Shown here piece by piece: positions 1-434 of a stretch of DNA of 434 nucleotides. Both the position numbers and the translations under genes were made by a program. Origin of the DNA: Escherichia coli. Its GTDB lineage: Bacteria > Pseudomonadota > Gammaproteobacteria > Enterobacterales > Enterobacteriaceae. Under the pieces are notes generated by a model. That model had not been told where the DNA came from. It searched no databases and saw only the letters and a list, made by a program, of their open reading frames with translations. The stretch is from NCBI RefSeq assembly GCF_003334355.1, contig NZ_QOWP01000107.1; one strand, given 5' to 3'. Position 1 is the first letter of the stretch; each line of letters opens with the position of its first letter.

Positions 1-41
1 TCAAAAACATCGCATTTAACTATATTGTGAGGCTTGCATAA
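1..41 (+). CDS. 3' end of an upstream gene (partial, 5' end outside window), probably the side tail fibre gene that normally precedes tfa; codons begin at nt 3 and translate ...[12 protein letters not shown]
   Basis: Seen in sequence: the frame beginning at nt 3 is the only + frame open from the window start to the tfa start (the other two + frames stop at 17-19 TAA and 28-30 TGA). It ends at TAA 39-41, sharing one base with ATG 41-43. Established knowledge: tail fibre genes in lambdoid, Mu and P2-like phages sit directly upstream of their assembly chaperone, often with overlapping stop and start. Only 13 codons are visible, so the product identity is inferred. Confidence 0.45.
27..32 (+). 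promoter_or_regulatory. Shine-Dalgarno / ribosome-binding site for the tfa-like CDS (GTGAGG, core GAGG at 29-32)
   Basis: Seen in sequence: the purine-rich GAGG motif ends 8 nt before ATG 41, a typical spacing for enterobacterial translation initiation. It lies inside the last codons of the upstream ORF, consistent with translational coupling. Confidence 0.5.
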
Positions 42-434
42 TGGCATTCAGAATGAGTGAACAACCACGGACCATAAAAATTTATAATCTGCTGGCCGGA
101 ACTAATGAATTTATTGGTGAAGGTGACGCATATATTCCGCCTCATACAGGTCTGCCAGCAAACAGTACCGATATTGCACCGCCAGATATTCCGGCAGGCT
201 TCGTGGCTGTTTTCAACAGTGATGAGGCATCGTGGCATCTCGTTGAAGATCATCGGGGAAAAACCGTCTATGACGTGGCTTCCGGCGACGCGTTATTTAT
301 TTCTGAACTCGGTCCGTTACCGGAAAATGTTACCTGGTTATCGCCGGGAGGGGAATATCAGAAGTGGAACGGCACAGCCTGGGTGAAGGATACGGAAGCA
401 GAAAAACTGTTCCGGATCCGGGAGGCGGAAGAAA
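41..434 (+). CDS. tfa: Phage tail fibre assembly protein (Tfa family chaperone), N-terminal 131 codons; 3' end runs past the window edge
   Basis: Seen in sequence: ATG at 41 is followed by 131 sense codons with no stop up to the window end (last full codon 431-433), with an SD upstream and enterobacterial-style codon usage. Established knowledge: the translation matches, from memory, the N-terminus of E. coli prophage tail fibre assembly proteins (TfaE/TfaR/TfaQ-like), which share their conserved part with lambda Tfa, Mu U and P2 G. These paralogs are nearly identical, so I cannot say which one this is; the symbol is generic. No search was run. Confidence 0.9.

Follow-up and report, generated by a model that had tools for sequence, protein, structure and literature searches.

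A tail-fiber/tfa junction in Escherichia coli, very likely of a Rac-type prophage and part of a single fixed cassette beside a serine recombinase gene

We found that the window, the whole 434-nt stretch of Escherichia coli DNA analyzed here, spans the junction of the side tail-fiber gene stfR with tfaR and very likely (we put the probability at about 0.9) belongs to a lambdoid (cryptic) prophage of the Rac type, at its right end, where it is a single, fixed copy. The stfR/tfaR junction of Rac and lambda is already known and is in itself an ordinary locus. The first-pass annotation had proposed a prophage host-range cassette, possibly an invertible one; the cassette stands, with J and lom upstream, whereas all structural tests go against its being invertible.

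The window opens with the 3′ end of a side tail-fiber gene of the stfR/lambda stf type (positions 1–41, plus strand), recognized from its translation and from annotated coding-sequence ends. Read in frame 3, it supplies the last 12 codons and the stop at 3–41 (TAA at 39–41) and is 100% identical to the ends of the annotated stfR or tail-fiber coding sequences in six loci (L001–L003 and L015–L017). Directly 3′ of the fiber gene and on the same strand, a tfa gene of the tfaR type, which encodes the fiber assembly chaperone, runs as a stop-free open frame from 41 to 434, covering the 5′ 131 of its 191 codons; stfR and tfaR are so annotated in the Rac, phage and lambda loci. The fiber stop TAA and the tfa start codon (ATG, 41–43) share one base in a TAATG at 39–43, and a GAGG motif read from the sequence as Shine-Dalgarno-like (29–32, plus strand) lies 8 nt 5′ of that ATG, with the lambda imm21 and imm434 records carrying an annotated ribosome_binding_site beneath the window match. 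Translational coupling of stf and tfa would fit the TAATG overlap.

The tfa part of the window is identical to the loci encoding tfaR WP_000885599.1, and its product differs from lambda Tfa at one of 131 residues (V97F). Full-length Tfa, taken from a 100%-identical locus, matches the Pfam family Caudo_TAP (PF02413; residues 72–191, E = 1.9e-42) and PHROG 105 'tail fiber assembly' (E = 1.5e-98), the fiber gene upstream of tfa matches tail-fiber PHROGs, and NCBIfam assigns no family to TfaR or StfR. The direct succession of a fiber 3′ end and tfa, initially read from the letters alone, is thus borne out by translation, annotation and the Pfam and PHROG matches. The minus-strand open reading frames (77, 24 and 22 aa) and an out-of-frame plus-strand frame of 93 aa are without support, and a promoter and terminator scan of the window returned no terminator and one weak minus-strand promoter-like match at chance level. 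The Rfam family IS009 (RF02111) matches the plus strand at 384–434, within the tfa coding sequence, with its model positions 1–51 (41.8 bits, the match being cut at the window end), and at full length (199 nt) it lies on the sense strand of the tfa 3′ half (L001 10384–10582) and scores 220.9 bits, the gathering score being 117. What is named an 'sRNA' family may be no more than tfa coding sequence.

The surroundings were read from the six loci, all 100% identical to the window and chosen for carrying it, each with 5–10 kb on either side. Gene order is the same in all six: fiber gene, tfaR, a 98-nt spacer, convergent pinR, ydfK, ynaM and the host genes uspF-ompN-nifJ, with the 3′ end of pinR facing tfa across the spacer. 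Rac of K-12 has the same layout (stfR, b1372; tfaR, b1373; pinR, b1374) and shares the genes, their order, the TAATG junction and the site beside uspF/ompN with the window-type loci, differing in ten substitutions across the window (97.7% identity) and in that the upstream fiber gene is truncated in many carriers. An intact fiber gene with J and lom upstream (J-lom-stfR-tfaR) occurs in one of the six, L001. In the remaining five, the fiber gene is truncated, fused (e.g., directly after a holin gene) or interrupted by internal stops (L002 7834–10041; L003 9859–10041; L015 3206–5041; L016 2039–5041; L017 4907–5041), and with truncated or fused fiber genes in five of six contexts the tail module would be non-functional in most carriers. 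None of the six has a damaged tfaR (WP_000885599.1) or pinR (WP_000086519.1), and each gene is identical throughout the set; the intactness of tfaR proves nothing here, because the contexts were selected on the window.

The same module is found in functional phages: in 2H10 and mEp460_ev081, J-lom-stf-tfa is succeeded by that recombinase gene, again convergent. The lambdoid placement of the side tail fiber, behind J and lom in the late tail operon, is seen in L001, 2H10, mEp460_ev081 and lambda. Lambda stf (orf-401/orf-314) and tfa (orf-194) stand in the same J-lom-stf-tfa order as in the Rac-type locus, but in lambda tfa is followed by ea47 and the b region with no pin, and the similarity to Rac ends at the tfa stop codon. 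In K-12-type genomes, nearly identical blocks of tfa 3′ end and pin are present in Rac and in Qin on one chromosome; these are potential substrates of homologous recombination for large rearrangements.

As reference architectures of invertible segments we used the e14 P segment (L004) and the G segment of phage D108 (L014), e14 serving also as the control for the site scans and tblastn searches. Mu and D108 resemble the Rac-type locus in that a fiber gene followed by a tfa-type chaperone gene forms a host-range unit, and e14 has distant homologs of the fiber/tfa pair, with TfaE 35% identical to TfaR and a 10-residue fiber ending on record, although e14 and the Rac-type locus show no similarity at the DNA level. 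Unlike the Rac-type locus, e14 has a convergent arrangement of stfP-tfaP and tfaE-stfE′ bounded by 26-bp pix sites (L004 4779–4804 and 6606–6631), and the 5′ end of pinE lies beside pixR, its start 55 nt beyond that site, whereas Rac-type pinR is reversed. D108 likewise differs, with the order S-U-U′-S′-gin, annotated inverted repeats and the 5′ end of gin beside the segment.

Nothing comparable surrounds the Rac-type cassette. Annotation of the six contexts within 5–10 kb on either side contains no second, inverted tfa/fiber pair; tblastn against the Rac-type and phage loci (L001–L003, L005–L009 and L015–L017) returned one tfa and one fiber tip, both on the plus strand, and found no second fiber/tfa set over all 46 kb of the complete 2H10 genome; in the e14 control it did recover the convergent tfaP/tfaE pair. 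Around the cassette no inverted repeat exceeds 25 nt at 76% identity, and only short pairs at chance level occur there and inside the window. For the crossover sites, we scanned every Rac-type locus, and 2H10 from end to end, with pix, taken from the e14 sequence, and with gix and hix, one D108 gix being read from an annotated repeat; these scans detect sites resembling pix, gix or hix. The best score in the Rac-type loci was 15–17 of 26, shuffles of the 2H10 locus (L009) reach 17–20 and the e14 control gave 21–26. No AAACCNNGGTTT core lies near the cassette, and the Rac-type loci lack a flanking inverted pair of Din-type sites (about 26 bp, with an AAACC-NN-GGTTT core). The site and repeat scans thereby confirm for the window what the first-pass annotation had remarked, namely that it contains neither a crossover site nor an invertase gene. 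In the flanks, where that annotation had looked to a serine-invertase gene, a convergent fiber/tfa pair and crossover sites, the six contexts yield a serine recombinase gene but neither of the other two. Flanks empty of an inverted copy, an invertase and phage structural genes alike, which it had named as the outcome that would count against it, are not what we found, because pinR lies 98 nt 3′ of tfaR and tail genes lie upstream.

Population data point in the same direction. We followed the junction with a 251-nt probe that joins the 3′ end of tfa, the spacer and the 3′ end of pinR. Of 2,811 matching records, 2,670 (95%) carry it unbroken, and sampled records without an intact probe are mostly partial matches that lack pin. 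Were an inversion endpoint to lie at tfa/pin, a fair share of genomes would show a broken probe; the junction is instead essentially invariant. All HSPs between L001 and eight other loci are collinear, and both orientations were not found among finished genomes, each assembly reporting one, so that an inversion at low frequency may escape notice there. When the full sequences of Rac and Qin were surveyed by BLAST in published work, inversions were seen in e14 only and in neither Rac nor Qin (PMC12529663), P-segment inversions being present in 33% of 562 surveyed E. coli genome sequences (PMC12529663); this survey agrees with our structural tests.

The neighboring recombinase itself is of another kind than the e14 and Mu-type invertases. 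PinR belongs to the wider serine recombinase superfamily and matches PHROG 125 'DNA invertase' (E = 1.2e-68), with sub-threshold matches only in NCBIfam; among solved structures Gin is closest (E = 3e-29), with gamma-delta resolvase not far behind (E = 3e-22). PinR shares 38% identity with PinE and 37% with D108 Gin (37–39% overall), against 79% between PinE and Gin, which indicates that PinR is not a Din-type invertase. Nor does pinR show the arrangement of a Gin/Cin/Pin/Hin-clade invertase gene, whose 5′ end lies beside a crossover site. The phage collection holds 11 records with PinR homologs of at least 95% identity and one at 60–80%, the rest falling below 60%; the plasmid collection holds at least 239 records at 80–90% and at least 1,521 at 60–80%, i.e., at least 1,760 plasmid records at 60–90% against the one phage record at 60–80%. 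Judged by these homologs, the close relatives of PinR (60–90%) are mostly plasmid-borne. One of them, an 82%-identical homolog on plasmid pE371_1 (L018; 196 kb, with tsh), has no tail genes nearby.

On the side of pinR away from tfa we uncovered a conserved 26-bp dyad, GAGACCCAAAATCGATTTTGTGAAAA, which contains a perfect 14-bp palindrome (CAAAATCGATTTTG) in a 12+2+12 site about 130 nt 5′ of the pinR start (L001 11436–11461). Its version in 2H10 (L009 25112–25137) is changed symmetrically at both ends (AAAAATCGATTTTT) with the dyad kept, and the 2H10 genome contains no second copy. Further dyads, AAAATAAT/ATTATTTT, occur near pinR at L001 11352–11371, and pE371_1 displays dyads with a different half-site (TGTCCGAAACCG GT CGATTTCGGACA) in the analogous position 5′ of its homolog (L018 6673–6745). 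The conserved dyad may be a PinR-binding or res-like site, and by analogy with resolvase-type systems the candidate sites of PinR itself would adjoin its promoter.

The limits of the cassette can be drawn from what different replicons share. The block common to lambda, Rac, pE2855-2, pTB212 and a myovirus-type phage-plasmid begins at about L001 9039 and ends with the stop codon of tfa at 10605, and the similarity in it is collinear and confined to the plus strand in lambda, pE2855-2, pTB212 and the AR_0067 plasmid. Within stfR, 5′ of the window, lies a hypervariable gap of about 200–260 bp (about L001 9640–9900), the rest of the cassette being 85–96% conserved; this gap is probably the receptor-contact region. 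The tail-module layout of pE2855-2 resembles that of P1, and PLSDB typing assigns the plasmid an IncHI1B replicon. A single, fixed cassette without an inverted partner is also what pE2855-2, pTB212 and the AR_0067 plasmid carry; the PLSDB gene tables, which are incomplete, list no invertase for them, and open-reading-frame and repeat checks of pE2855-2 agree. Strain CE0007a (L008 7002–7112) shows the last 110 nt of tfa joined to a different fiber type with its own small downstream open reading frames, and behind the residual tfa come the same spacer and pin gene, which places a recurrent mosaic joint inside tfa at L001 10505. The joint reflects replacement of a cassette by recombination, which has long been known in tail-fiber genes, and not site-specific inversion.

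Some alternatives to a fixed Rac-type cassette have to be weighed, none of which we regard as likely. The one that survives best, at long odds, holds that the locus is a relic in which an ancestral lambdoid stf-tfa-tfa′-stf′-pin array lost its second half and its sites and left an orphan invertase. Linkage of pin genes to fiber/tfa modules in several phage types and the retention of a constant block of tfa 3′ end and pin beside different fiber cassettes would fit such a history. So would the reported activity of PinQ/PinR on the e14 pix sites: PinQ is reported to flip, in trans, the P segment of e14 (1,797 bp), yielding StfE2, which blocks adsorption of phage T2 (Kirigo et al., NAR 2025, PMC12529663; preprint 10.1101/2025.03.28.646004), and PinR, which is 99% identical to PinQ, is treated as equivalent by the authors (PMC12529663). 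Against a relic, however, no remnant of a second tfa or fiber is recognizable even at the protein level and the gap between tfa and pin is only 98 nt, pinR points the wrong way for the pattern of Mu and e14, its close relatives are plasmid recombinases without fiber genes nearby, and its candidate dyad sites lie 5′ of it, on the side away from tfa.

Slightly less probable still is that the window comes not from chromosomal Rac but from a phage-plasmid or a free phage of the lambda kind, with no recombinase as a neighbor. The window is matched in 4,442 of 5,426 complete E. coli genomes, with 360 records at 99% or more, and is 100% identical to numerous loci on chromosomes that are annotated as stfR/tfaR. 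Its DNA identity to lambda orf-314 (stf)/orf-194 (tfa) is 98.2%, lambda and its relatives reach 97–98.6%, and the cassette is also displayed by phage-like plasmids at 84–94% identity, all of which leaves some room for such an origin. Set against this, the only 100% matches seen lie in E. coli chromosomes, and all six contexts examined sit at the Rac site; phages reach 98.6% at best and plasmids 98.2%. Since lambda-type phages without pin are themselves 98.2% identical, pinR is a predicted neighbor of the window, on the strength of the 100% matches. Two database records call for separate mention: the 'Campylobacter phage CJLB-4' record MW057783.1 (48,361 bp) has the same identity to the window as lambda and a coordinate close to that of lambda, and a 'Salmonella enterica plasmid' (NZ_CP082339.1) has the exact length of lambda, 48,502 bp, and again its identity to the window. 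Both are probably lambda DNA, mislabeled or carried over.

We give very little credence to the idea that PinR-type recombinases rearrange the adjacent fiber-tip/tfa cassette by way of sites unlike pix and gix, for example through recombination of Rac with Qin at their identical tfa-3′/pin blocks, or at the lone 26-bp dyad 5′ of pinR, either of which might serve; if true, the rearrangement would amount to a host-range or defense switch that is invisible in finished assemblies. An active Din-type segment flipped by the adjacent recombinase, in the manner of Mu G, P1 C or e14 P, is the least credible of all, for although a serine recombinase gene sits 98 nt 3′ of tfa in every 100%-identical context, matches the 'DNA invertase' PHROG 125, has Gin as its nearest solved structure and belongs to the PinQ/PinR pair reported to invert DNA (PMC12529663), the locus has no second inverted pair, crossover sites or flanking inverted repeats, pinR turns its 3′ end toward tfa unlike pinE and gin, its product shares 37–39% identity with proteins that are 79% alike, the junction is unchanged in 95% of records and the published survey saw inversions in e14 alone (PMC12529663).

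Returning to the fixed Rac-type cassette, we take the C-terminal tip of the fiber to be its receptor-binding part; lambda Stf binds OmpC reversibly (PMC7291167), and a specificity for OmpC is predicted from the 98%-identical lambda module. The downstream tfa, putatively coupled to it in translation, would encode a chaperone for folding of the fiber trimer that stays on the virion, a role suggested by 99% protein identity, given that lambda Tfa assists assembly of the fiber trimer (PMC7291167). In Mu the N-terminal domain of Tfa contacts the receptor-binding domain of the fiber (PMC7291167; PMC11338833), and in the Rac-type locus the N-terminal part of Tfa co-varies and travels with the fiber tip as one exchangeable cassette, occurring in lambdoid phages, on a phage-like plasmid whose tail module shows P1-type synteny and in myovirus-type phage-plasmids. 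Its diversity arises by recombinational replacement (mosaicism) and not by site-specific inversion. PinR, for its part, is a small serine recombinase that would have no target in cis around the cassette and that, according to the published work, can flip the e14 P segment in trans. Because PinR here is of a different lineage, in the wrong orientation and without a partner cassette or crossover sites, the locus carries a caution for the reading of other prophages, in that a fiber-tfa order beside a serine recombinase gene is not by itself the sign of an invertible host-range switch.
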